From: Pundamilia nyererei
Lineage: Eukaryota
DNA length: 16,004 nt
NCBI RefSeq assembly: GCF_000239375.1
Contig: NW_005187640.1
Location: 831,579 to 847,582, forward strand
Reading direction: 5' to 3'
Part shown: piece by piece, positions 1,775 to 15,464 of the stretch
Numbering within the stretch: position 1 is the stretch's first letter
Layout of the letters: each line of letters begins with the position of its first letter
Notes under the pieces: generated by a model
Told to the model about the DNA's origin: nothing
The model's database searches: none
Seen by the model: only the letters and a program-made list of their open reading frames with translations
Program-made: the position numbers and the translations under genes

Positions 1775-2114
1775 CAGTGTTGCCAACTTAGCGACTTTGT
1801 CACAGTTTTCAGACCCCCTTAGCGACTTTTTTTCTAAAAAGTGACTAGCGACAAATCTGGTGACTGTTTCTGTTGTTATTGGAGACTTATTTATGACAAC
1901 AGATGATGTGCAGATCGATCCTGAAATATCGATTCCTCCGATACCAATCGTTTATGTTCTAGAATCGATTCTCACATTAAAATATCGATATTTTAGTACT
2001 TTAGAGTAAATTTGTAGTTTATCATTAACAGTAACACAGTGGAAAGAAACTATAACATTTGGATTGTCTATGTTTGGAAGGAACTATTTTCCCTTCCGCC
2101 TTTCATAGTCATGT

Positions 2115-2375
2115 GTGAAACACGGCTGTATAAATGTGTTGCAGCCGCTGGCGTGCGCACTCACAACAATGGCTGAGCGTAAACAGAGTCATGTGTGGAC
2201 GTATTTTACCTCCACAAACAGCCAAGACGTGGTTTGCGATACATGTGGCAAAAAAGTGAAGTGTTGTGGCAACAGCACTAACCTCGTCAAACACCTCAGA
2301 GTAAATCATATCACAGAATATGACGAGCGTATGTTGAGGAGAACTGAAGAGGAGGACAGGGACAGGTGCTGCTAG
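2115..2375 (+). pseudogene. Truncated hAT transposase N-terminus: BED-type zinc finger (SHVWTYF..CDTCGKKVKCCGNSTNLVKHLRVNH). No dimerisation or catalytic part is present.
   Basis: 86-aa ORF with the BED-finger pattern (W..F.., C-x2-C, then H-x4-H after NL.KHL). It lies inside the TIR-bounded element, and the rest of a transposase is absent. Confidence 0.65.

Positions 2376-2918: not shown

Positions 2919-2952
<34 letters not shown>
2919..2952. repeat. (AC)16 dinucleotide microsatellite inside the hAT element.
   Basis: Directly visible perfect AC run. Confidence 0.95.
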
Positions 2953-3265: not shown

Positions 3266-3879
3266 AATCCATCAAGCGGTGCGGCTTCGTAGCTTAGCAA
3301 AGTCGCACTAAAACATCTGACAGATTTTCGAGCGCCGTGCACATAAACTCGTTTCGAGGTCAGTAAACACAACCAGAGTTCATACATGAGGCACACGGGG
3401 TTATAAGGGGCTCTGTCGACTTTCAGAAAAATCAAAGGATGATTTTAAGTGCGCCGTGTTTTCCAAACAACACGGTAATAACGACGGCCCGCTAGCATGC
3501 GCTACCAAAAATAGTGCTTTGTTGTGTGTCTGAGGGACGAAAGCCAAACCAGTTCAACCACTGAAGCTGCAGCATTTTTACAAACCAGTTCAGCTTCATC
3601 TGTTTCAATCAACGATCCACTTTCGCTCTTCTCATTCTCTGTCACCATCATGCTTTTTCCGCCATGTGCGTATGAAAACAAAGGCACTGCGCATGCGCGT
3701 TTTACCCGTATTCTATCACCATATTTCATTTTCCTATCATTGCCCAACATTACACCGGTGTTACCATGAACGGTATATGTCCAGCCCTACTAGTACTGAT
3801 ACCTAAAAACCGTACTTCATTACAGTAACAAAGTATTTGTACTTGCTTCTTACTTACTTCCCACCTTAGGGGGATATTA

Positions 3880-4200
3880 TTACATGACAGATCAGCCGGT
3901 ACTTGGCCATGGACCCACCAGGTGCCTGTCATGGTCCTGTCAGGAATAAGGCAGCCTTTATAAGTGGCTGTATCTGTACAACAGCTTATCTCTGGCCTAA
4001 ATGATGTCAAGCAGCAGGACAATGATCCCATTCGTTCCCACTGCTGTCCAAACTGACAGGAGTTAGCTTAGGCTCTCTAGTTAACAGTGCTGGGATTGTT
4101 TAACAATACATTCCTCATGGATATCTTCAGAGGTGACTACAGGCTGATTGTTAGCATACCTGGGTGGGCTGTGAGGGAGAAACTCTGGAAACTGACTTTT
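3880..4200 (+). mobile_element. Degenerate Tc1/mariner-like transposase relic (catalytic DDE region). Translated QQDNDPIRSHCCP corresponds to the Tc1 FQQDNDPKHTSK motif.
   Basis: In-frame QQDNDP at ~4011-4030 followed by W..ENLWKL-like residues. Broken by stops. Probably the same or a related Tc1 copy as at 1000-1235, disrupted by later insertions. Confidence 0.4.
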
Positions 4201-4212
4201 TTACTTTTACAG

Positions 4213-4308
4213 GGTAAGAAAGCAGAGTTGAAGTCCTTCATCATCGAGTTAAGCAAAGAGTTTTCCATCCTGTCTCAGTTTACCAGCTTCGTGGCCATTG
4301 AGGAACGG
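4213..4308 (+). CDS. PARP4: PARP4-like exon: GKKAELKSFIIELSKEFSILSQFTSFVAIEER. Acceptor AG 4211-4212, donor GT 4309-4310, phase 0/0.
   Basis: Open frame between consensus splice sites. The ..SQFTSFVAIEER motif is characteristic of the post-vWA segment of PARP4/VWA5A-family proteins. Frame-consistent with downstream exons. Confidence 0.6.
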
Positions 4309-4401
4309 GTTTGTCAAATCAGCCTTTTTTCACATTTACAGCTTGTTTTCCATTCTTTTAGCTTTTTTATCAAATATTTATTTAACTGATCTTATTTTTA
4401 G

Positions 4402-4533
4402 GACTCAGAGCAACCACAGCCTGGTTTTACAGACATCCCCAAGCTGATTGCAGAGGAAGATGTGGACTTCCTTCCCTACATTAACTGGATTTCTCCCGAG
4501 GATGATGAAGACCTAATAGAGGAAGAGTCTTCG
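4402..4533 (+). CDS. PARP4: PARP4-like exon (44 codons): DSEQPQPGFTDIPKLIAEEDVDFLPYINWISPEDDEDLIEEESS. Acceptor AG 4400-4401, donor GTATGA 4534.
   Basis: Open frame, polypyrimidine tract + AG upstream, GT donor, phase 0/0 continuity. Confidence 0.6.
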
Positions 4534-4764
4534 GTATGAATTTTTTAAACTGTTGTTCATACATGACTAGTCCTCATGCGCATAAACTGGAGCTGTAGTT
4601 TTGCCAAAGATTTTGTTTCAGCGGCCGAGGGAGCAACACATCTGTGTTCCTGTGCTTTACTAAACATGTGATCATCATGTCATTGATCGCACTGACTGTA
4701 TTGCTGCTGCAATCTTCACAAATGCTGACGTTTATGATTTCATGCTTTTGTCTTCCTGCTGCAG

Positions 4765-4815
4765 GAGGAGGAGGATTGTGTCTTTGGTTTGTTTGACACT
4801 TGTGGTTCCTTCACG
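4765..4815 (+). CDS. PARP4: PARP4-like micro-exon (17 codons): EEEDCVFGLFDTCGSFT. Acceptor ctgctgcag|, donor GTTAGT.
   Basis: Strong acceptor (tcttcctgctgcag), GT donor, phase 0/0. Confidence 0.55.
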
Positions 4816-5123
4816 GTTAGTCCCCTTACACTAAGACGCTGATGCTGCACATTCAGTGAAACAAATTCAAGAACTTTAACAAATATGTGGAACAATAATT
4901 CAGTTCAATTTCAGAAATATCTAAATGGCATGTAGCAGATGTCCCGCAGTGCAACAAACTATGTGATTCTTTTGTTGAGTTAATGTTGATGTAGAACTTT
5001 TCTTATATTGTGAAACCTGACAAAAGACATTACCAACAGTATTTCTGACAGAATTCATCTCAACACATTTAGAGGTTTGTAGAGTCGGAGTTTAAATTTC
5101 TGCTTATTTTTCTCCTTTCATAG

Positions 5124-6742
5124 AGTCCCGACTACTCTCCTCCAGCTCCACCTACTTCTTCTTTTAAGGAGCTTGCTTCAGACGATGTTCCCCACCTTTC
5201 TTCTCCTGGACACCCGGCTCCCCCTCCGCCTCCTTCTTTTATGAAGCCTGCTTTTATGAAGCCTGCTTTTATGAAGCTTGCTTCAGACGATGTTCTCGAC
5301 CTTTCTTCTCCTGGACACTCGGCTCCCCCTCCGCCTCCTTCTTTTATGAAGCCTGCTTTTATGAAGCCTGCTTTTATGAAGCCTGCTTTTATGAAGCTTG
5401 CTTCAGACGATGTTCCCCACCTTTCTTCTCCTGGACACTCGGCTCCCCCTCCGCCTCCTCCTTTTATGAAGCGTGCTTCAGACGATGTTCCCCACCTTTC
5501 TTTTCTTGGACACTCGGCTCCACCTCCACGTTATTTATTTATGAGGCCTGCTTCAGAGGGTGTTCCCCATCTTTCTTTTTCTAGACCCCCACCTCCACCT
5601 TCTTTTATGAGGCCTGCTTCAGACGATGTTCCCCACCTTTCTTTTCTTAGACACTCGGCTCCACCTCCACGTGTTTCAGGACATATTCCACAAGGACCGT
5701 CCAGACCTTTTTCATTTTGTGGTTACTCTCCTCGTAGTCAATCCATGGATTCATTTTCATTTGGCATTTCATCATCATCAGACAGTCAGGCAGTGAAGGA
5801 CATCGATATTCCAATTCCGAGCTGTAGCACTCAGATTAGCAGGTCATCACTCCACACTCAAGCTTACACTTCAGCGATGAGTAATCAGGTACAGAGTGCA
5901 CTTGATTCTGTGTCTGATGAGGAAGAACAGAGTTCATCTGAGTATGTTGAAGGCGTTTCTTACAGGGCCTGTAAAAAGCCTGTAAAATACAAAGACGGAG
6001 CAGCAGCCAGCCGTCTGTCTTTCCTCCCAGATTCTTGTAGTTCTTTCTTTAAAGTCAGAGAACAACTTCGTGAGACGTCAGCTCCAGCGGATTTAGAGCA
6101 CCAAGCAAAACCTCACCTCCCAATATATGGTCAGGTAGGGAAAAGAGCCGAGTTTAAGAGTAAAGTCTTTCCTGAGAAGTCCTATTTGCCTCCCAAATTT
6201 TGCGGCCCCAGCATATATGGGAGTCCTAACATTGCTCCTGCAGCAGTACCGTCTCAGATGGTTGTTGAATCTGATGAAACAGCTCCTCTGTTTGTTGCAC
6301 AGACTGCCAGAGACAGAGAGCCGTCTTTTGGGTCAGCTAAGTTTACTACCAGTGGCTTTCACTTAGGTAGGTTCGGTAGCTCAAGCTCCACCTATGGTGG
6401 TGCTCCGGGATCTACAGTGGTTCCTGTGACGTCAGCTCCATCAGATTTAGAGCACCAACCAAAACCTGACTTGTGCTTATCATCATTAAGCTGTTATTTA
6501 CCTCCCACCCGTTCCGACAATGATGTTCCTGTAGGCCCTGCAGGGGCTCCTGAGAAGGCCGCTCGGCTTCATCTCAGAGGAATGGCTCCCTCTTATCGTT
6601 CACGCAAAGTTACGAGTGCATCACAACCTCACCATGAACTTGAAGCTCAGAGCAATGTTCGACAAAGAACGCCCATCATAGCTTTCGTCGCTGGCCATCA
6701 GGATCTCCCGACTAACCCTGTCCTGCGTCATCGGTCAGCTGT
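5124..6742 (+). CDS. PARP4: Large PARP4-like exon (1619 nt). Encodes a proline-rich, low-complexity, tandemly repeated linker followed by Ser-rich unique sequence. It does not end at the in-frame TGA 6744: a consensus donor GTGAGT at 6743 splices it onward.
   Basis: Acceptor tttctcctttcatag| at 5122-5123. One uninterrupted frame of 539 codons. Donor G|GTGAGT at 6743 precedes the stop and gives in-frame continuation into exon 6832. Confidence 0.65.
5160..5690 (+). repeat. In-frame coding tandem repeat. About 7 units of ~75 nt (FMK LASDDVPHLSSPGHSAPPPPP S/P), with a nested 15-nt repeat TTTATGAAGCCTGCT (FMKPA) present in 2 and 3 tandem copies.
   Basis: Direct inspection: repeated tttatgaagcttgcttcagacgatgttccccacctttcttctcctggacactcggctccccctccgcctcc units with decaying identity toward 5690. 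Confidence 0.9.
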
Positions 6743-6831
6743 GTGAGTCTCTGAACATTTCTACACACATTCTGTTTGTTAACTATGAGAAGTGTTTGTC
6801 TAACAGGTGGAAATGACTGTATGTTAACCAG

Positions 6832-6901
6832 GCTGAATGCAGCAGAATCTCCTGAAGCGCTGAAGCTCAAATGGATGAAGATCTTCCAGATGCAACATTC
6901 A
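6832..6901 (+). CDS. PARP4: PARP4-like exon: (V)LNAAESPEALKLKWMKIFQMQHS. Acceptor ttaaccag| at 6830-6831, donor GTGAGC at 6902. First nt completes the GT| codon from the previous exon.
   Basis: This is the only acceptor/phase combination that stays open across the junction. The alternatives at 6807 hit stops. Confidence 0.5.
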
Positions 6902-8186
6902 GTGAGCTTTTCGTGGTTTTATAGTCTTGGGTTCACTTAAGCAAACATAGCTGTTTATCACTCGGACAAAGCAACAGCTTCCTTTGGCTCTCTGACAGGT
7001 TAAAACTGCGAAGGAAGCGTAATTTTTTTACTGAATCACTTGTTAACATCTGTTTTATTTCTATGGGACTTGTCATTGTTAGAGTCATGGGTGGGTGGAG
7101 CCTATTCCAGCTGTCATGGGGCGAAAGGCGGAGTAGACCCTGGAGAGACTGCTAGTGTATTGCAAGGCTAACACAGAGAATTTAACCTCCTAGGACCTGG
7201 CGTCCACATGTGGACATCATATTCTGGGTTGTCTAAACCAAAATACAAAATTTTGGTAAAAACAAAGAATCACATAATTCTTTGTTTTTACATTCATCAG
7301 GTTCAATCAGCCCAAATAACGAGAAGAGAAAATGCCGTGTAAGAGTTCGGGTCTTACGAGGTTAAACATAACTGTCAGGTTAGGCTCAGACTAGGGTTTT
7401 AGTCTATGTGATATATTAACAGCAAACATCCGTTGTTTTGAAACTTTAAGCTGCATTTCAGAGTTTTATGATAGGAACATATAAAGAAAGCTTCCAGTGA
7501 TGCCCCTCTGCCTCCTTGTAGACACACCTGTCGTATCAATTTGAAAATTCTACCTCAACTCGTCACATTCACAAGATTTCCAGAAAACTTGACCTCCAAC
7601 CTTTACCTTAAACTAAAGGCCACTGGTATTCAAACTGGTCTGAGGTTTGTAGTGGCTGCACCTGTTTTTGAGTTACTGCATTCACAAGCTCAAGTGTCCA
7701 TGCTGCCCACCTGCCCAGCAGGGTGGAGACGGTACCCCTCCATCTTTTACAGCCAAGGGGTGAAAATCATTTTGACGCAGAAAGAATCGCAGCTAATGAT
7801 GAGTCTGGGATCATAATGGGGATATAAACAAGACCTTGCTATCACGTTTACCCAGAATGCAGTTTTTCAAATGGTATCCAGTTAATTATCAGAAAACAGA
7901 TAAAACAGCCACGCTTCTGTCAATCTACATCACAGATATTAAACTGGTAATATATGTCATGACAGTGATGCTCAAAGTTGGTCATAGAGTTAAAAGTGTT
8001 TTATCGTAGTGAACGTTTCATGTGGTTAGCTCCTGTGCTTTGGTAGTTAGCAAGGCTCAAAAAAGCTGGACAGAATTCTTAAAATGACCAAGGACAGAAC
8101 TGTAACCCACACCTTTGCACTCTGAGTGCATGCAAAAATGTAAACGTCACTTTGATATAATGGCGTTATTTTTATGCGTGTTGTAG

Positions 8187-8289
8187 GAAGGGTACTGGGA
8201 ACTAACCACAGAGCTGGGGGAACTACTTAATGTCAACGTGGACCTGTTTGCCAACGTGTTCCTGAAGAACAAAGGCATCCATTCTCTCG
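8187..8289 (+). CDS. PARP4: PARP4-like exon: EGYWELTTELGELLNVNVDLFANVFLKNKGIHSL(G). Acceptor ttgtag| at 8185-8186, donor GTGAGA at 8290. Ends in phase 1.
   Basis: Strong similarity to the human PARP4 C-terminal segment ..GSWKLTPELGLILNLNTNGLHSFLKQKGIQSLG.. (recalled from memory). Consensus splice sites. Confidence 0.7.
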
Positions 8290-9424
8290 GTGAGAGCTCG
8301 TTCAATTCTGATCTGGAGGTTTTATGAAAGTTAACATGTATGTACGCTTACTTGGGATCGTGTTAACAATGCATATAAAATGTGACTCACATCCACCAAG
8401 GTCTTTAAGGTCAACTTAAGATTTATTGGTGGAAAATTGACAAAAAGTCTCGAATCACTTAGAAACTGCAGTTCTTACACGTGTGTTTTGTTAAAGTACA
8501 TAAAGTGCCATATAAAGATTTACAGCATCAGGTTACATTTGAGGTCTGACCTAAGTAGTACTAAACAGTAAAAAGAAATGACGCATATCCAGTATATCCA
8601 CATAAATAAAACCTAATTCTTTGCATTTGTTTTCATGGCACTTCTTAAAGTTTACAAAGAACAGGAAACAAAGTGGTTCCCAACAAAAGCCGATGCTGGT
8701 CCTTTAAAACAAGCCCAGAGACTGATGGGTGGACAGATTTGTGCTCTGAGTGCTTCTTGTTTTTCAAGTTATTGTAAGTTTACTTAGTTTTATAATTATT
8801 ATGAGCTCACACTTAACACTTTACCTCGATGTCTGTAAGAAAGGTTTCGCAATAACCATTTTATACCAACACGTTCTCACTCACAAAGCACAACATTCTG
8901 CGCTAAATGACAAATCATCGATATATTACGCTTCCGATCACTCAACACGTCCCTATATTACAAGATCGGAAAAATGAGGAAACACGAGAACCATTTGGAA
9001 TGAATCTACACGTTTGTTTTACTCGCTTTGGAAAACACGATCCAACATCATTGAAGTGCTGGTTATGGTTTGGGATCAGGCTAGGGCTGGAATAACGCGG
9101 TGCGTAGCACAAGAACACGGAGGGTCTCCTGTCACATTCCTCAGGAACGTCCGGGACTCGGAAGTGAGAACGGGCTGTTTATATGCAGTTTTCTAGGAGC
9201 TCAGCTGTTAATTAACCTTATTTTTCATTATTTCTTTAACAAAATCAGGCACATGTTAAACCTGTAGATTACTCCCCAGCGCGACGTCTAAATGGGCAGC
9301 TGTTGTTTGAGATTGATTCATTATGTTGATTCTGTTCGTCTGGACGTTGCGTCTGGAACACTTCGGTTATAAAAGGACCATTTTGTGATTTCCTTTGGGA
9401 TCTTTTTTGCATGTGTGTTTGAAG

Positions 9425-9557
9425 GCGTGACAGCCCACAAAGATATCCTGAGGCTGGTGGCGACTCTTCTGGTTCTGCAGCTGATGAAAGCGAACAAACT
9501 GGAAGAAGGCAAACTGCTCCGCACCCTGTTCTGTCTGGAAGAAGCTTCTCAGTCCAG
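9425..9557 (+). CDS. PARP4: PARP4-like exon: (G)VTAHKDILRLVATLLVLQLMKANKLEEGKLLRTLFCLEEASQS(R). Acceptor tttgaag| at 9423-9424, donor GTCTGT at 9558.
   Basis: Matches human PARP4 ..VKGRECLLDLIATMLVLQFIRTRLEKEGIVFKSLMKMDDPSISR.. Phase 1 in / phase 2 out, consistent with flanking exons. Confidence 0.7.
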
Positions 9558-9786
9558 GTCTGTCCAACACAGGATGCACAACAGCTTAGAGTAAAATTTC
9601 TCTGCAGTTGTTACAAATCAGCTGAAATTAAGCTTGAAAAACATTTTGTACAAAATGTGATTTGATATATTAATGAAGCTTATTTCACTATGCCTTGCAT
9701 GACTTTAGAAATGCAGGTCTGGAAATATTTGCACCACGATGGTTTTAACAAGGTTGTTCACTACTGTGACTGTCTTTTTCATTCAG

Positions 9787-9994
9787 GCCTGAACGATGGG
9801 AGCAGGTGAAGAAGGCGGTGGACTGGGTTTGCTGGGCTGACCGACAGTACCCCTGTGTCTATTGTCGGCTAGAGTTTGGTTTGAGCTGGGAGTCCGCCAC
9901 CCGTCAGCTACTGGGTTATGAAAGCCTCCCTCCCTTCTCGCCTCTCTGTGGTCTTGATCTACAGAGGACAACGGCCCCAGTACTGGTCCAGTGA
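9787..9994 (+). CDS. PARP4: Terminal coding exon of the PARP4-like gene: ..PERWEQVKKAVDWVCWADRQYPCVYCRLEFGLSWESATRQLLGYESLPPFSPLCGLDLQRTTAPVLVQ*. Stop TGA at 9992-9994.
   Basis: Acceptor ttttcattcag| at 9785-9786. Matches the human PARP4 C-terminus ..AIKQASEWVRRTEGQYPSICPRLELGNDWDSATKQLLGLQPISTVSPLHRVLHYSQG* (the major-vault-protein-interaction region). Confidence 0.75.
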
Positions 9995-10600
9995 GAAGAT
10001 GCTGTGGACACCGTGTAGCCTTTCAGAGGGGATTACAGTAGCTTTAGATATGCTTGTAGATGAATATGCATGTATTCCTTTGCCTTTTAAGAAGAATTTC
10101 GTACTCTGTGTGTTTATACATGTATGGATAATCTCAAATGTCCTCTGCTGTAATCTAATTTCTCAAATGTTACAAATACAGGCCATTTACACGGAGCATT
10201 TACTGCACATAGAGCAGTTGTTTTGTCATCTGTGAAGTTTGCCCGAAAAGCAAACTGGTGTTTGATCCAGGTCAGGTGGTAAAATGTACCTAATTTGAGA
10301 CACAAGTTGTTATTTTTTTTATTGCATAACACAGTATCCATTTTTTAAAACACTTCATAGCTGTTGGTGTTGGTGGCAGCAGTTGTTGTTTTGTGCAGTG
10401 GGATAATGGTGGAGGGTAAATACCTCTGATGCTGGAGGACCGATGTTGACTCTCCAGTGATTGGGTAGCAGAATGTAGAGTCTCCCCTGGTTACGGGCAT
10501 CAGCCAGGTTTGTGTCCTTTGTGTTTGATGCACATTGTAACGTGATTTTATAGTCAGTCAGTGACTTGATACTTCTTTACATGTAACAAAGGTTGTTGTT

Positions 10601-10989: not shown

Positions 10990-11620
10990 TCCATGCCACT
11001 CTCTCTCCACTTTGCACCTCAGGCTACGTCTACACTAATCCGGATAAATCTGAAACACTCCGCGTCCACACTATCATTTTCAAAGAGTTGTGCATCCACA
11101 CTGAAGCGACCTAAAATGCTTACATTCCAGTCCAGCGCATGCATGTAAAGTAAGAAGATTCGACCCGCCTCATTTCTGTCTGCCGTTTATTTTCTTTCCG
11201 GCTCTTTGAAAATTGGCAAAATGTGGAGGAAAAGCAGCGAGTTTTTTAAATGGATTAACAATGAGGTGGAGTTGTTGCTGCGAGGAACACAAAAGCACAA
11301 ATTGCAAAAGCGAGTGAGAATTAAAGAATTTGAAGAAAAGCTCTCTGGAGCATGTGCAGACTGATATTAATCTTTAACAGGGCTGTCAAACCTGAGAGCT
11401 GACAGAACAACTGCTGCTCCGCTGTCTCAGTTTAATTGGTCACATGACTGCATCATATAACTAAAATGCGTCATCTTTCCAAAAGTCTGCGGTTACGCTG
11501 GCCACACCGCCGCGTGAAAACAGCGTTTTCAGTTGTTTCTGCTTTTTCAAAAAGCTCCGTTTTCCTTGACCGAAAACGCCGTCTCAGTGTGGAGTGTACA
11601 CATGTACAGGTTATAATTAA
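10990..11620 (+). mobile_element. Putative non-autonomous DNA transposon-like block with imperfect inverted ends (..CGTCTACACT.. / ..AGTGTGGAGTGTACAC..). Contains a 48-codon ORF at 11221-11367 (MWRKSSEFFKWINNEVELLLRGTQKHKLQKRVRIKEFEEKLSGACAD).
   Basis: Shared words at both ends in inverted orientation (tacact / ccacact / ttttcaaag vs ctttttgaaaaag). The small ORF has a W-x-E-x-LL pattern reminiscent of Myb/SANT-like (MADF/Harbinger-type) DNA-binding domains. The boundaries and family are uncertain. Confidence 0.25.
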
Positions 11621-12455
11621 CGACAGTTCAACAAGTTTCCGTGTTCAACAGCATTTCCTCCTTATTTGGTTGTCTGCCCCCCCAGATGTTTCCTGTGGAC
11701 CCCGGATCACTAGTTGCTAAGCAGAGACAAAGTCTTTACCCTAGAAATGATGCTTCATGTCTATGTGTATGTAAGCGTGTTAGGCCTTCATTCACAGCAT
11801 GCAGGTCATTGCATCAATATATCAGTTCAGACATGGCGCTGAACGACGCTTTAAGCCTTCCTGTATGCTCAACTCTATCATGAGCACAAATGCAATGTGC
11901 GTAATAACCTGATTGAAACTATGTTTAATAAATGGAATAAATGACACTGCTCAAAGCTAAATAAAAAGATGTAAAAGAATCAACCTGATATAAAATGATA
12001 TAATCCCCACACTTGCACATTCATAGTTCATTTGCTCGAATCCGGTTTCATAGCCCTAGTTCTTGGTCATTGTGTTGTACTTTGTTTCTGTAAATAAAAT
12101 ATTTTAATCACTAAGCTCTGCTTTTGGTTTCATTTCTCACTGCTGGCTACCGAGCCCTGACACCCCCAAGGCAACTGTTCCAGATGGGAGCTGTTACGAA
12201 ATCAGTTTTACCTCGGTTCTTTTTATTCCTCGAGCATCCAGAGACGGCACCGGACTCAGTCATTTTCACAAAACCTTTATTCATCTTTACTCATCTTTAC
12301 TCTTCTTCATTCATCTTCATTTAAGCATGCATCTTCTAGAAGGGAAGACGAGGCCGGTGGGGCCCTCTGCAAAAAATCTTCACCCCTTTGTTCGTTACAG
12401 CCAGCTTTATAGAGGCGTCCCCATCATAAAACCCCCCACAGTGTGCTGCAAACTC

Positions 12456-12605
12456 TGTCTGTGTCTATGTGCACGAGCACATGAATGCCTACATGTGCGT
12501 TCCCGCGTGTCTATGTGAGTGCTCGTGTGTGCCTGTGTGCGCATACCTGTGTGTATGTGTGTGTGCACATGAGTGAGTGTGCGTGTGGATGTGTGTGCGT
12601 GACAG
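12456..12605. repeat. TG/CA-rich imperfect low-complexity block (GTGTGYGYRYR-type).
   Basis: Directly visible degenerate (TG)n / (TGTGCG)n composition. Confidence 0.85.
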
Positions 12606-13299
12606 TTAAAACACTGTGGGTGTAGGTGACTCCCTTGGTCATAAAACCCCTCTCCCTTCCAGACCACAGTTATCCAGTTACAAATGTTGAGACCCCCACC
12701 CAAACATCCTCTGGGGAATTTCCACTCAGCATTAACTCTTCTATGTTTTACTTTCACAGTTCAAGTGGGGGAGGGGTCTCCTACAATCTACTCCTAAGTT
12801 CACGACACAGTGAGGCCTTTATTATATTGAGGGCAGTGTCAGTGTCTCTACAACAGTTTACATTCTATGATAACACATTTCTAAACTCTAAAATCAGCTA
12901 AACATTCTTCAGAGCCCACAAATCCAACACAGATGGGTCCAGTTGTCCAGTATGTTTATCTTTAAAAGAAACAGCAAATCGAGCTATTTCTTACCATGTC
13001 AAAACAGCATCCCAGTAAAGGAAAGCTTCAGCTCTCAAGGTTGCTCAGTGACAAACTCTTCCAAGTCTGGAACATAAAGTGGTCGTTTGATAAAGTGGGA
13101 GACACAAACAGATGAAAAAGGGTTTTACTCCATAAAAGAGCTGGCCTTCCTCAAAATAGCTGAAAAGCGTTTCTACCAGGATGAAACAAATAGTTGGGTA
13201 GCGCCACCACCTTTTCATTCTCCAAGACCACGACTCCCCAACAGCAGACAGCAAGCCAGTCACCCTCTTGCTTCACTCAGTCGAATGCTGAAGAATTGA

Positions 13300-13425: not shown

Positions 13426-14135
13426 AAGACACTAAAAAAGAAGAACTTTGTGCAGTACTTTTGGTATTTATATTTGTAATTGAGCTATATTAGACCTATT
13501 TCTTTTATTTTGTAACTTTGTAATATATTGTATTATTTAATTAGTTCAGTCTGTTACTGTTCTTTTTCTCTTGGAGCAACTGTAACAACATTATTTACTT
13601 CGGGATTAATAAAGTTTTCTGATTTTGATTCTGATTGAGAAGAGAACTGTTACTCCTTCACATCAAAAGGAAGCCGGTGAAATGGGTCAGACATCTGGAT
13701 ATGATGCTTCTTGGACACTTGGATGAGGTGTTTGGGGAATGTTTATCACAAGACCCTGTGGTAGACCCATGACATGCTGGTGACATTATGTCTTTGGAGC
13801 CCAGAAAAAGAAGCATAGGTGGCTGGACAGGAGGCATAGGCATCCCTTCTTAGACTCGTGCTCCTGAAATCCAGGAGAAACAGCAGGAAATGAAATGATG
13901 TATCGGTGGAATGGGTGTGTTTTTATTTTTGTCAAGCTGTGAAACATAAGTAAATCTCAGGACGTGCTATCATGTGCATTTCCAGTGAAAGCGTTAGAGA
14001 ATATCACACAAGAGATTTTCTGGGGTGGATGGAGAAAAGGAGTAGGAGGAGTAAGGTAAGTCACATTACACGGATAGCTTTAGTCAGAAAGGTGCCAGTG
14101 TTCAGCAGCTTTCATCTTCTTTTCCCTTTCTGCTC

Positions 14136-14308
14136 ATGGAGAACGTGTATGGACAACAATTCTGCTTTCCACAGCTCCTCAACACCTCCTGTAGGAAGCC
14201 GCTGCAACATCACAATCAGACCATTTTTCTCTGCATTCTGCTTTGCTGCATCTCTCTGCTCACAGTGACTCTCAACGTCCTGGTCATCATCTCTATCTCC
14301 CACTTCAG
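14136..14308 (+). CDS. taar: TAAR gene exon 1: MENVYGQQFCFPQLLNTSCRKPLQHHNQTIFLCILLCCISLLTVTLNVLVIISISHF(R). N-terminus with two N-glycosylation sequons plus TM1. Donor GTGTTA at 14309, ends in phase 2.
   Basis: ATG-initiated open frame. Short glycosylated N-terminus followed by a hydrophobic helix. ..ISISHF|R-QLH joins the TM1-loop motif conserved in TAARs (SHFKQLHTPTN). Confidence 0.7.
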
Positions 14309-14644
14309 GTGTTAAAGTAAACTTTACTGTGATATATTGTGTTTGACTTGAGCATACTCGGATTAGCTACAGAGTACTTCACATTTACTAAACTGTGATA
14401 GCTCTCTTTTACAAAGGAACAGCTGATGTGATAAATGTTTGTACTATTTAACTGAAATGATTTCATATTCTGACCTCCTCCTCTCAGAATGATGTGGAAA
14501 CGAGAGGTTTGCCCTACTTTGTTGCACTGGATTGTTTATTGTATGTTGTTTTACTTTCAGAACTGGTGCATTACTGTAGCCTTCCACCTGCTGCAGGTTT
14601 ATTAATATTATGTTACGTCTTTCTTTCTGTTTTTTTCTTCTCAG

Positions 14645-15464
14645 GCAGCTTCACAACCAAACCAACCTCTTCCTCCTCTCTCTCGCTGTCTCAGACCTCC
14701 TTGTTGGCCTCCTGCTGATGCCGCCTCGAATCCTCCTTTTAGGGGGCTGCTGGTTTTTGGGCACCTTCATGTGTGGACTGTTTTACTATGCCTCTTTTGT
14801 TCTCACATCTGCCTCAGTAGGAAACATGGTGCTTATTTCATTTGACCGGTATGTAGCTATTTGTGACCCCTTGTCCTACCCCACCACAGTTACTGAGAGA
14901 AAAGTCCAAATCAGTGTCTGTCTGTGTTGGGCCTGTTCACTGCTGTATAACGGCACAATACTAAACAACTTCCTGAAGCAGCCAGACAGATATAATTCTT
15001 GTGACGGGGAATGCATAGTTGTAATTAATTTCATAACTGGTGCTTTTGATGTCGTAGCTACCTTCATCGGCCCCACTGCTGTGATCATATTTCTGTACAT
15101 GAGAGTATTTCTGGTGGCTGTGTCTCAGGCTCAGGCTATGAGATCTCATGTTGCCTTTGTTACTTCAAAGGGTTCAGTTCACGTTGCCATTAAGAAGTCT
15201 GAGAGAAAAGCAGCTACAACTATTGGTGTTGTTGTGGTTGTGTTTCTGATGTGTTTCTGTCCTTACTTTTATCCCTCTCTCGCAGGGCAGGACACATCAA
15301 CCAGTGTGGAATTTTCAGTTTTTGGGGTCTGGTTACTTTATTGTAATTCCTGTCTAAATCCACTTATCTATGCGTTTTTCTATCCCTGGTTTAGGAAGAC
15401 TGTTAAACTGATAGTTACATTGCAGATTTTGCAGCCTGACTCTTGTGATGCCAACATACTGTAG
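14645..15464 (+). CDS. taar: TAAR gene exon 2 (TM2-TM7 and C-tail). (R)QLHNQTNLFLLSLAVSDLLVGLLLMP..FDRYVAICDPLSY..CPYF..NSCLNPLIYAFFYPWFRKT..*. Stop TAG at 15462-15464. Total predicted protein 330 aa.
   Basis: Acceptor tttttttcttctcag| at 14643-14644. Rhodopsin-family GPCR hallmarks (LAVSD, DRY, CWxP-like CPYF, NPxxY). The TAAR-specific fingerprint NSxxNPxxYxxFYxWFxK in TM7 is present. Confidence 0.85.

Follow-up and report, generated by a model that had tools for sequence, protein, structure and literature searches.

The receptor gene at positions 14136 to 15464 of the window, i.e., the whole stretch of 16,004 nucleotides that was analysed, is very probably an intact two-exon gene of the class III (clade III) trace amine-associated receptors (TAARs) in a haplochromine cichlid, representing the ortholog of the previously described ZebTARs.A022 and BurTARs.A023 and coding for a putative amine receptor that would operate via Asp193. 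Genes of this kind are already known, the orthologs being annotated in RefSeq and catalogued in 2015. The presence of a TAAR, as stated in the preliminary description, is confirmed far beyond chance. Both the missing Asp3.32 and the single intron are normal features of a large fish-specific clade, so the gene should be regarded as an ordinary member of it.

Two open reading frames on the plus strand contribute to the gene, one of 59 codons from the ATG at 14136, which is the first ATG of a stop-to-stop ORF at 14055-14312, and one of 284 codons which ends with the TAG at 15462-15464. Splicing 14136-14308 to 14645-15464 results in an uninterrupted, in-frame product of 330 amino acids, with the following parts:

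14136-14308, plus strand: coding exon 1 (173 nt), comprising Met1 to Phe57 and positions 1 and 2 of the Arg58 codon; it codes for the N-terminus and TM1, with the N-glycosylation sites N16 and N27 and the residues Cys10 and Cys19.
14309-14644, plus strand: intron of 336 bp with GT..AG boundaries, phase 2, located in intracellular loop 1 (IL1).
14645-15464, plus strand: coding exon 2 (820 nt including the TAG stop codon at 15462-15464), comprising the last base of the Arg58 codon up to Leu330; it codes for TM2-TM7 and helix 8.

Exon 1 matches residues 1-58 of the product with 100% identity in tblastn. If left unspliced, it runs into a stop two codons on (HFRC*), and the exon-2 ORF by itself is devoid of the N-terminus and TM1. 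The intron starts with GTGTTAAAGT and ends with a pyrimidine tract (...TTTTTTTCTTCTCAG) closing in CAG, the boundary letters being GTGTTAAAGT ... TTCTGTTTTTTTCTTCTCAG. The Arg58 codon is assembled from AG|G at the junction, right after Phe57, which corresponds to phase 2 by the GT-AG rule. Azzouzi et al. (2015; PMC4415300) label the corresponding intron of cichlid TAARs as 'phase 0' (F|R). Either phase leads to the same mRNA, because AG(G) stands at both boundaries, and a GT..AG intron results only from the phase-2 placement. As judged from the splice sites and the in-frame join of 330 codons, the coordinates, the length of 336 bp, and the phase 2 given in the preliminary description are all correct.

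With only three differences (C33Y, A196V, and V256A), the product reaches 99% identity to a 330-aa protein of Maylandia zebra, which is annotated in RefSeq as 'trace amine-associated receptor 13c-like'. The M. zebra protein spans the identical junction HFR|QLHNQTN, and RefSeq models of many species lead to the same 330-aa product. In the supplement of Azzouzi et al. (2015), the same protein is listed as ZebTARs.A022 for M. zebra and as BurTARs.A023 for Haplochromis burtoni, both being recorded as spliced members of subfamily A4 with 330 aa and an intron after codon 57 (TTC=F) in INTLOOP1, and family A is equated with class III (Table 4 of the same paper). The gene in the window agrees with these two entries and with the M. 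zebra RefSeq model in its length of 330 aa, its two exons, the Phe|Arg intron in IL1, and its class III affiliation; it is separated from ZebTARs.A022 and BurTARs.A023 by lineage-level substitutions only and matches neither of them exactly.

The affiliation of the receptor with the TAARs is apparent from a Pfam 7tm_1 match (E = 1.6e-48, residues 47-300 of the product), the TM7 fingerprint, the DRY motif, and the ranking of sequence matches in the PDB, where TAARs come ahead of other aminergic receptors. The best matches are zebrafish TAAR13d, c, e, and a at about 1e-66 (3e-66 to 2e-64), followed by mouse TAAR7f and then TAAR1 and TAAR9 at about 1e-53 to 1e-49. Altogether, the TAAR matches range from 1e-66 to 1e-42, while the non-TAAR aminergic matches are weaker, with 6e-40 for the histamine H2 receptor and about 1e-37 for adrenergic receptors. 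A best match to non-TAAR aminergic GPCRs, which had been named at the outset as an argument against a TAAR, was checked for, and the TAARs come first. An AlphaFold2 model of moderate confidence (pLDDT 66, pTM 0.63; MSA of 89 homologs) contains seven long helices located where they are expected, and its best Foldseek matches in the PDB are the zTAAR13-Gs, TAAR1-Gs, and TAAR9-Gs complexes. In a phylogenetic tree (see below), the product nests inside the TAARs, HTR4 being one of the distantly related sequences. The TM7 fingerprint NSxxNPxx[Y/H]xxx[Y/F]xWF is reportedly the mark of the TAAR family (Lindemann et al., 2005). It is listed here together with the other diagnostic residues:

14793-14795, plus strand: Ser108 at position 3.32 (codon TCT), aligned by HMMER to Asp112 of zebrafish TAAR13c.
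14844-14852, plus strand: DRY motif Asp125-Arg126-Tyr127 (3.49-3.51), with D and R invariant in 89/89 homologs.
15048-15050, plus strand: Asp193 at position 5.42 (codon GAT), aligned to Asp202 of zebrafish TAAR13c.
15345-15392, plus strand: TAAR TM7 fingerprint NSCLNPLIYAFFYPWF, residues 292-307, matching the regular expression NSxxNPxx[YH]xxx[YF]xWF.

Position 3.32 is occupied by Asp in classical aminergic receptors and in class I/II TAARs. Ser108 stands opposite Asp112 of TAAR13c in the residue alignment; therefore, the loss of the classical amine-binding Asp is real, and Ser in place of Asp is indeed found as previously reported. Among the close homologs (n=89, 65-99% identity), this position is rather variable, containing S in 74 sequences, A in seven, G, D, and N in two each, and T and C in one each, and Asp5.42 is invariant (89/89). 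TM5 had been left out of the preliminary description, and Asp5.42 (D193) was missed there. Just upstream of the TM7 fingerprint, Trp287 (Trp7.40) is conserved in all 89 homologs and Tyr290 (Tyr7.43) in 77 of them, and DRY, NPxxY, and Asp2.50 are present in the product and intact among the homologs. Among the class A microswitches, only the 'toggle' Trp6.48 deviates from the usual state, being replaced by Phe as in 83 of the 89 homologs; a literature search for replacements of Trp6.48 in teleost TAARs gave nothing relevant. The pocket positions 3.28, 3.29, 5.38, and 7.39 vary within the same set.

The preliminary description connected the missing Asp3.32 with a shift of class III away from classical amine ligands, a hypothesis of Hussain et al. 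(2009), as far as it is presented by Li et al. (2015; PMC4695389). The latter authors revised it by showing that clade III TAARs bind amines via Asp5.42 in an inverted orientation. Zebrafish TAAR16c, TAAR16e, and TAAR16f of this clade are amine receptors, the amine responses of TAAR16c and TAAR16f are abolished when Asp5.42 is neutralised, and Asp5.42 is kept in 84 of the 85 zebrafish TAARs without Asp3.32 (Li et al., 2015). The same Asp3.32/Asp5.42 pattern was observed on more receptors by Guo et al. (2022), along with exceptions to the rules. In view of the role of Asp5.42 in TAAR16c/e/f and the confirmation of the pattern, the shift away from amines has to be considered the older hypothesis, and it is not supported for the receptor described here, which belongs to a group with a fully conserved Asp5.42.

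As suggested by these relatives, the protein would be a GPCR of olfactory neurons whose ligand is an amine carried in the water and bound in the inverted or 'non-classical' manner. The amino group of the ligand would form a salt bridge to Asp193 on TM5 and not to position 3.32, and the signal would be transmitted via Gs/Golf and cAMP, as expected from zebrafish TAAR16c/e/f and from the solved TAAR13-Gs structures. Expression in the olfactory epithelium is documented for 61 of the 68 taar genes of mandarin fish. Since one Asp is present instead of two, a monoamine would be a likelier ligand than a diamine. Like the product of the window, zebrafish TAAR16c, TAAR16e, and TAAR16f lack Asp3.32, contain Asp5.42, and belong to the same large teleost clade. 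However, the zebrafish clade III TAARs are encoded by single exons, whereas the gene described here contains the neoteleost IL1 intron and codes for Phe instead of Trp6.48. The otophysan and salmonid representatives in the tree mostly keep Trp6.48, unlike this neoteleost subfamily, and the activation details may differ from those of the relatives, given the Phe at this position. Clade III ligands are established for zebrafish receptors only.

It appears unlikely that the receptor has given up amine detection together with Asp3.32 and responds to some non-amine odorant instead. Such a change would agree with the Ser at 3.32, the Phe in place of Trp6.48, the variable residues at 3.28, 3.29, 5.38, and 7.39, the exceptions to the Asp3.32/Asp5.42 rules noted by Guo et al. 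(2022), and the lack of any reported ligand for the subfamily, no neoteleost member of it being shown as deorphanized in the papers considered. Yet position 5.42 remains unchanged in all 89 homologs while 3.32 drifts between S, A, G, D, N, T, and C, which is what would be expected of a functional anion at 5.42, and the aminergic pocket still contains Trp7.40 and Tyr7.43. Moreover, every clade III TAAR without Asp3.32 that was tested needed an amine on the ligand and Asp5.42 on the receptor (Li et al., 2015). Amine recognition in the inverted orientation through Asp193 is most probably the better-supported expectation.

The intron had been considered unusual for a TAAR, which is not borne out by the comparison with other species. 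About 80% of cichlid TAAR genes consist of two coding exons, with an intron whose site in IL1 hardly varies (about codon 55-57), where an aromatic-basic dipeptide is split at 92 of 95 junctions (Phe-Arg at 75 of the 95); spliced TAARs are confined to the class III subfamilies A1-A4 and A7, and introns occur in 86% of the TAARs of stickleback, 74% of those of medaka, and 61% of those of fugu (Azzouzi et al., 2015). The intron of the window is located exactly at this family-A site, after Phe57 and inside the Arg58 codon. An identical junction is present in the Archocentrus centrarchus ortholog, whose exons 1 and 2 are separated by an intron of 363 bp, as well as in an Archocentrus paralog and in four tandem copies from Lates calcarifer. 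The donor site of the family-A intron varies, being GC in many copies, namely each of the four from Lates and a paralog from Archocentrus, and GT in the gene described here.

Comparison with the Archocentrus ortholog yields dS = 0.376 and dN = 0.075 (dN/dS = 0.20), with 30, 22, and 72 differences at codon positions 1, 2, and 3, respectively. The exons are 87.5% identical (81% for exon 1 in tblastn) and the intron 62%. This pattern of substitutions indicates purifying selection on the spliced frame ever since African and Neotropical cichlids separated, and the gene looks functional. It is very improbable that the locus represents a pseudogene, a decaying gene, or a mis-joined model whose ORFs are not spliced as proposed: the 330-codon frame is intact and interrupted by a canonical GT..AG intron with a pyrimidine tract, the junction is kept in orthologs and paralogs, the low dN/dS value goes along with exons whose conservation greatly exceeds that of the intron, the class A microdomains are intact, and the same 330-aa product is predicted by RefSeq in many species. 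Degeneration might be suspected from Cys33, which replaces a Tyr found in 79 of the 89 homologs, from the loss of the normal stop codon in the Archocentrus ortholog, and from the status of A4 as a mere edge gene or fragment in the 2015 assemblies of Neolamprologus brichardi, P. nyererei, and O. niloticus (Azzouzi et al., 2015, Table 4), but the assemblies have gaps where A4 is scored as 'edge' or 'fragment', 65% of the sequence at the N. brichardi locus being N.

A view on the relatedness of the sequences shows that the receptor belongs to class III of the teleost TAARs. Representatives of clusters at 50% identity were taken from a library search with the M. zebra protein, and 36 of them, all full-length or nearly so, were combined with the window protein and TAAR13c to a set of 38 sequences for a distance-based neighbour-joining tree (327 columns, 200 bootstraps). 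In this tree, the window protein falls into a neoteleost clade (182/200 bootstraps), which is located inside a clade of TAARs from cyprinids, piranha, and salmonids without Asp3.32 but with Asp5.42 (168/200), and the whole Asp3.32-less set is set apart from all others (183/200), namely TAAR13c and Siganus TAAR13 (both with Asp at the two positions), a bat TAAR6-like protein, Tetraodon TAAR1, a lungfish TAAR1-like protein, and HTR4. Together with Ser3.32 and the class III assignment of the orthologs by Azzouzi et al. (2015), the bootstrap values of 84-91% sustain the class III membership proposed in the preliminary description. TAAR1, the class I TAARs, and the mammalian class II TAARs share the fingerprint, DRY, NPxxY, Trp7.40, and the 7TM fold with the receptor, but recognize amines via Asp3.32, form a separate clade, and are mostly encoded by single exons.

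Class III is derived from a duplication of an ancestral taar13 gene (Dieris et al., 2021), which is why TAAR13 represents the closest solved structure. Zebrafish TAAR13a, c, d, and e, which are receptors for cadaverine, putrescine, histamine, and agmatine with known cryo-EM structures (9m0x, 9m2s, 9m3s, and 9m40), are about 37-38% identical to the product and have Asp5.42 and the TAAR fingerprint in common with it. However, they contain both Asp3.32 and Asp5.42 as a di-cation motif and are intronless, as opposed to the Ser3.32, the intron, and the separate grouping of the receptor described here. A grouping with TAAR13c and Siganus TAAR13 was obtained in 0/200 bootstraps of the neighbour-joining tree of 38 sequences; thus, the RefSeq name 'TAAR13c-like', which is also carried by Asp3.32-less TAARs of salmonids, piranha, and reedfish, should be read as a best-hit label and not as a sign of orthology. 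That the gene codes for a true TAAR13-type diamine receptor for cadaverine or putrescine (class II/basal clade III), as the automatic names and the top rank of zebrafish TAAR13a/c/d/e among the solved structures might suggest, has next to no probability, as the receptor is without Asp3.32, one of the two Asp needed for diamines by TAAR13c and its relatives (Li et al., 2015), never groups with zebrafish TAAR13c or Siganus TAAR13, and carries the family-A intron, while zebrafish TAARs including TAAR13 are single-exon genes (Azzouzi et al., 2015) and H. burtoni apparently does not contain TAAR12/13 genes (species table of Dieris et al., 2021). Membership in the TAAR13 subfamily was rejected on the grounds of Ser3.32 and the bootstrap result.

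Upstream of the receptor gene, the window contains the end of a PARP4 gene on the same strand:

4081-9994, plus strand: 3' exons of PARP4, upstream of the TAAR gene and not part of the receptor.
5124-6743, plus strand: Pro-rich repeat exon of PARP4 (540 codons).
About 9770-9994, plus strand: last coding exon of PARP4, with the stop codon TGA at 9992-9994.

Several of these exons match residues 1159-1214 and 1581-1660 of human PARP4 (PDB 11jf_P) with E = 2.4e-20, corroborating the neighbour named in the preliminary description, and 4.1 kb lie between the PARP4 stop and the ATG of the TAAR gene. The PARP4_MVP-ID domain was not found by Pfam in the hand-joined C-terminal exons of PARP4, probably owing to imprecise boundaries, so that PARP4 is identified by the PDB match and by the Pfam match of the N. 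brichardi model. In N. brichardi, the order of the genes is the same, with 5.3 kb between the last PARP4 exon and exon 2 of the TAAR gene, and the respective RefSeq model is a chimera of PARP4_MVP-ID, a retroelement fragment, and TAAR exon 2. Therefore, the adjacency of PARP4 and the TAAR gene appears conserved among African cichlids; it is shown for these species only, because no PARP4 exons occur in the 10 kb that precede the Archocentrus ortholog.

The receptor gene had further been described as a lone TAAR next to PARP4 and not inside an obvious tandem cluster within the window. It is indeed single in the window, since tblastn found no second TAAR within the 16,004 nucleotides, but its position outside a cluster is not supported: the window ends 540 bp past the stop codon and hence cannot show the absence of a cluster, and the search for neighbouring paralogs, when carried out in relatives, yielded further TAARs at distances of 3-12 kb. 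In Archocentrus, an opposite-strand paralog with two exons and 58% identity is located downstream at a distance of about 12 kb. Lates contains at least four A4-like copies in tandem and an additional TAAR on the other strand, all within 21 kb. In tilapia, a single radiation-hybrid (RH) mapping group comprises all 66 TAAR sequences. The simplest interpretation places the gene at the PARP4-side border of a TAAR cluster or close to it, and there is no need to regard it as a dispersed singleton.

A more far-reaching view would be that this single-copy A4 receptor at the PARP4 edge, which combines Ser3.32/Asp5.42 with Phe in place of Trp6.48, might serve to detect one specific and conserved amine cue, with a mode of activation that might depart from that of the solved TAARs, and that the GC and GT donors could alter splicing efficiency and expression between the paralogs, but this combination is speculative and improbable as a whole. 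Beyond its correct annotation, the gene is of little importance, being a further representative of a well-described type. It may serve as a reminder that the RefSeq name 'TAAR13c-like' does not mean TAAR13, that the loss of Asp3.32 is not equal to a loss of amine detection, with Asp5.42 taking over, and that an intron in a neoteleost TAAR gene is the rule rather than an oddity. As a single-copy and well-conserved gene, it would be a reasonable candidate for deorphanizing the class III TAARs of neoteleosts.

The intron that interrupts intracellular loop 1 (IL1) of the two-exon TAAR gene does not begin with the same dinucleotide in all related genes, as seen from the following exon/intron boundaries at the donor side, listed with that of the window gene for comparison:

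L003 (Lates calcarifer locus) 3552-3566, 10163-10177, 14885-14899 and 19282-19296, plus strand: donors of A4-like TAAR copies, CACTTCAG/GCAT
L001 (Archocentrus centrarchus locus) 24518-24504, minus strand: donor of the TAAR paralog, CACTTCAG/GCAT
Window 14301-14312, plus strand: donor of the window TAAR, CACTTCAG/GTGT

The intron thus starts with GC in all four Lates A4-like copies and in the Archocentrus paralog, and with GT both in the window gene and in its ortholog from Archocentrus (CACTTCAG/GTGA). Judged from their sequences, the five introns with a GC start would therefore belong to the GC-AG type; no mention of GC donors was found in the paper on cichlid TAARs by Azzouzi et al. (2015; PMC4415300). 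The same authors assign phase 0 (Phe/Arg) to every intron of cichlid TAAR genes, and the window intron is of phase 2 (AG/G) under GT-AG boundaries (window 14305-14311 and 14640-14647). Since AG(G) recurs at either end of the intron, both descriptions lead to an identical mRNA.

Trp6.48 is the conserved "toggle switch" of the CWxP motif. It is replaced by Phe262 (CFCP; window 15255-15257) in the window receptor, as in 83 of its 89 close homologs; other neoteleost representatives carry Leu or Tyr there, and class III representatives from cyprinids, piranha and salmonids mostly retain Trp. A literature search yielded no discussion of Trp6.48 replacement in teleost TAARs. In TM1, Cys33 (window 14232-14234) takes the place of a Tyr present in Maylandia zebra and 79/89 homologs, and is a lineage-specific or polymorphic substitution. 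The remaining differences from the M. zebra protein, A196V and V256A, both affect variable positions.

The Archocentrus ortholog lacks the normal stop after ...ANIL, and its frame continues for 19 more codons (L001, about 11350-11410); its RefSeq model (P0002, 440 aa) has an unrelated C-terminal extension spliced on instead, which is probably an annotation artefact. The RefSeq model from Neolamprologus brichardi (P0007; locus L002, JH422439.1) is a chimera that joins the C-terminal PARP4 exon, a segment resembling reverse transcriptase and exon 2 of the TAAR. No TAAR exon 1 was detected in the locus, 65% of which is N; the exon probably falls in an assembly gap.

The sequence upstream of the receptor gene contains further features:

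Window 2109-2372, plus strand: ORF encoding a zinc finger of the BED type (zf-BED in Pfam, E = 1.4e-07)
Window 2919-2950: (AC)16 microsatellite
Window 5124-6743, plus strand: very long Pro-rich PARP4 exon (540 codons)
Window 5161-5670, plus strand: coding tandem repeats in this exon
Window 12430-12620: CA/TG-rich low-complexity stretch between PARP4 and TAAR

The zf-BED ORF is likely a relic of a hAT-type transposon, presumably inside a PARP4 intron. In the Pro-rich exon, 15 bp repeats (PAFMK) are nested in 66-120-bp units (SPGH.APPPPPSFMKPAFMK...LASDDVPHLS); this region shows only 44-62% identity to N. brichardi and therefore evolves fast.

The reedfish Erpetoichthys calabaricus is a polypterid and hence not a teleost. 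A TAAR of this species, P0193 (XP_051780714.1; Tyr3.32/Asp5.42), clusters with the Asp3.32-less clade in our tree, so this clade is not strictly teleost-specific, in agreement with Guo et al. (2022), whose clade III includes genes from gar and coelacanth.
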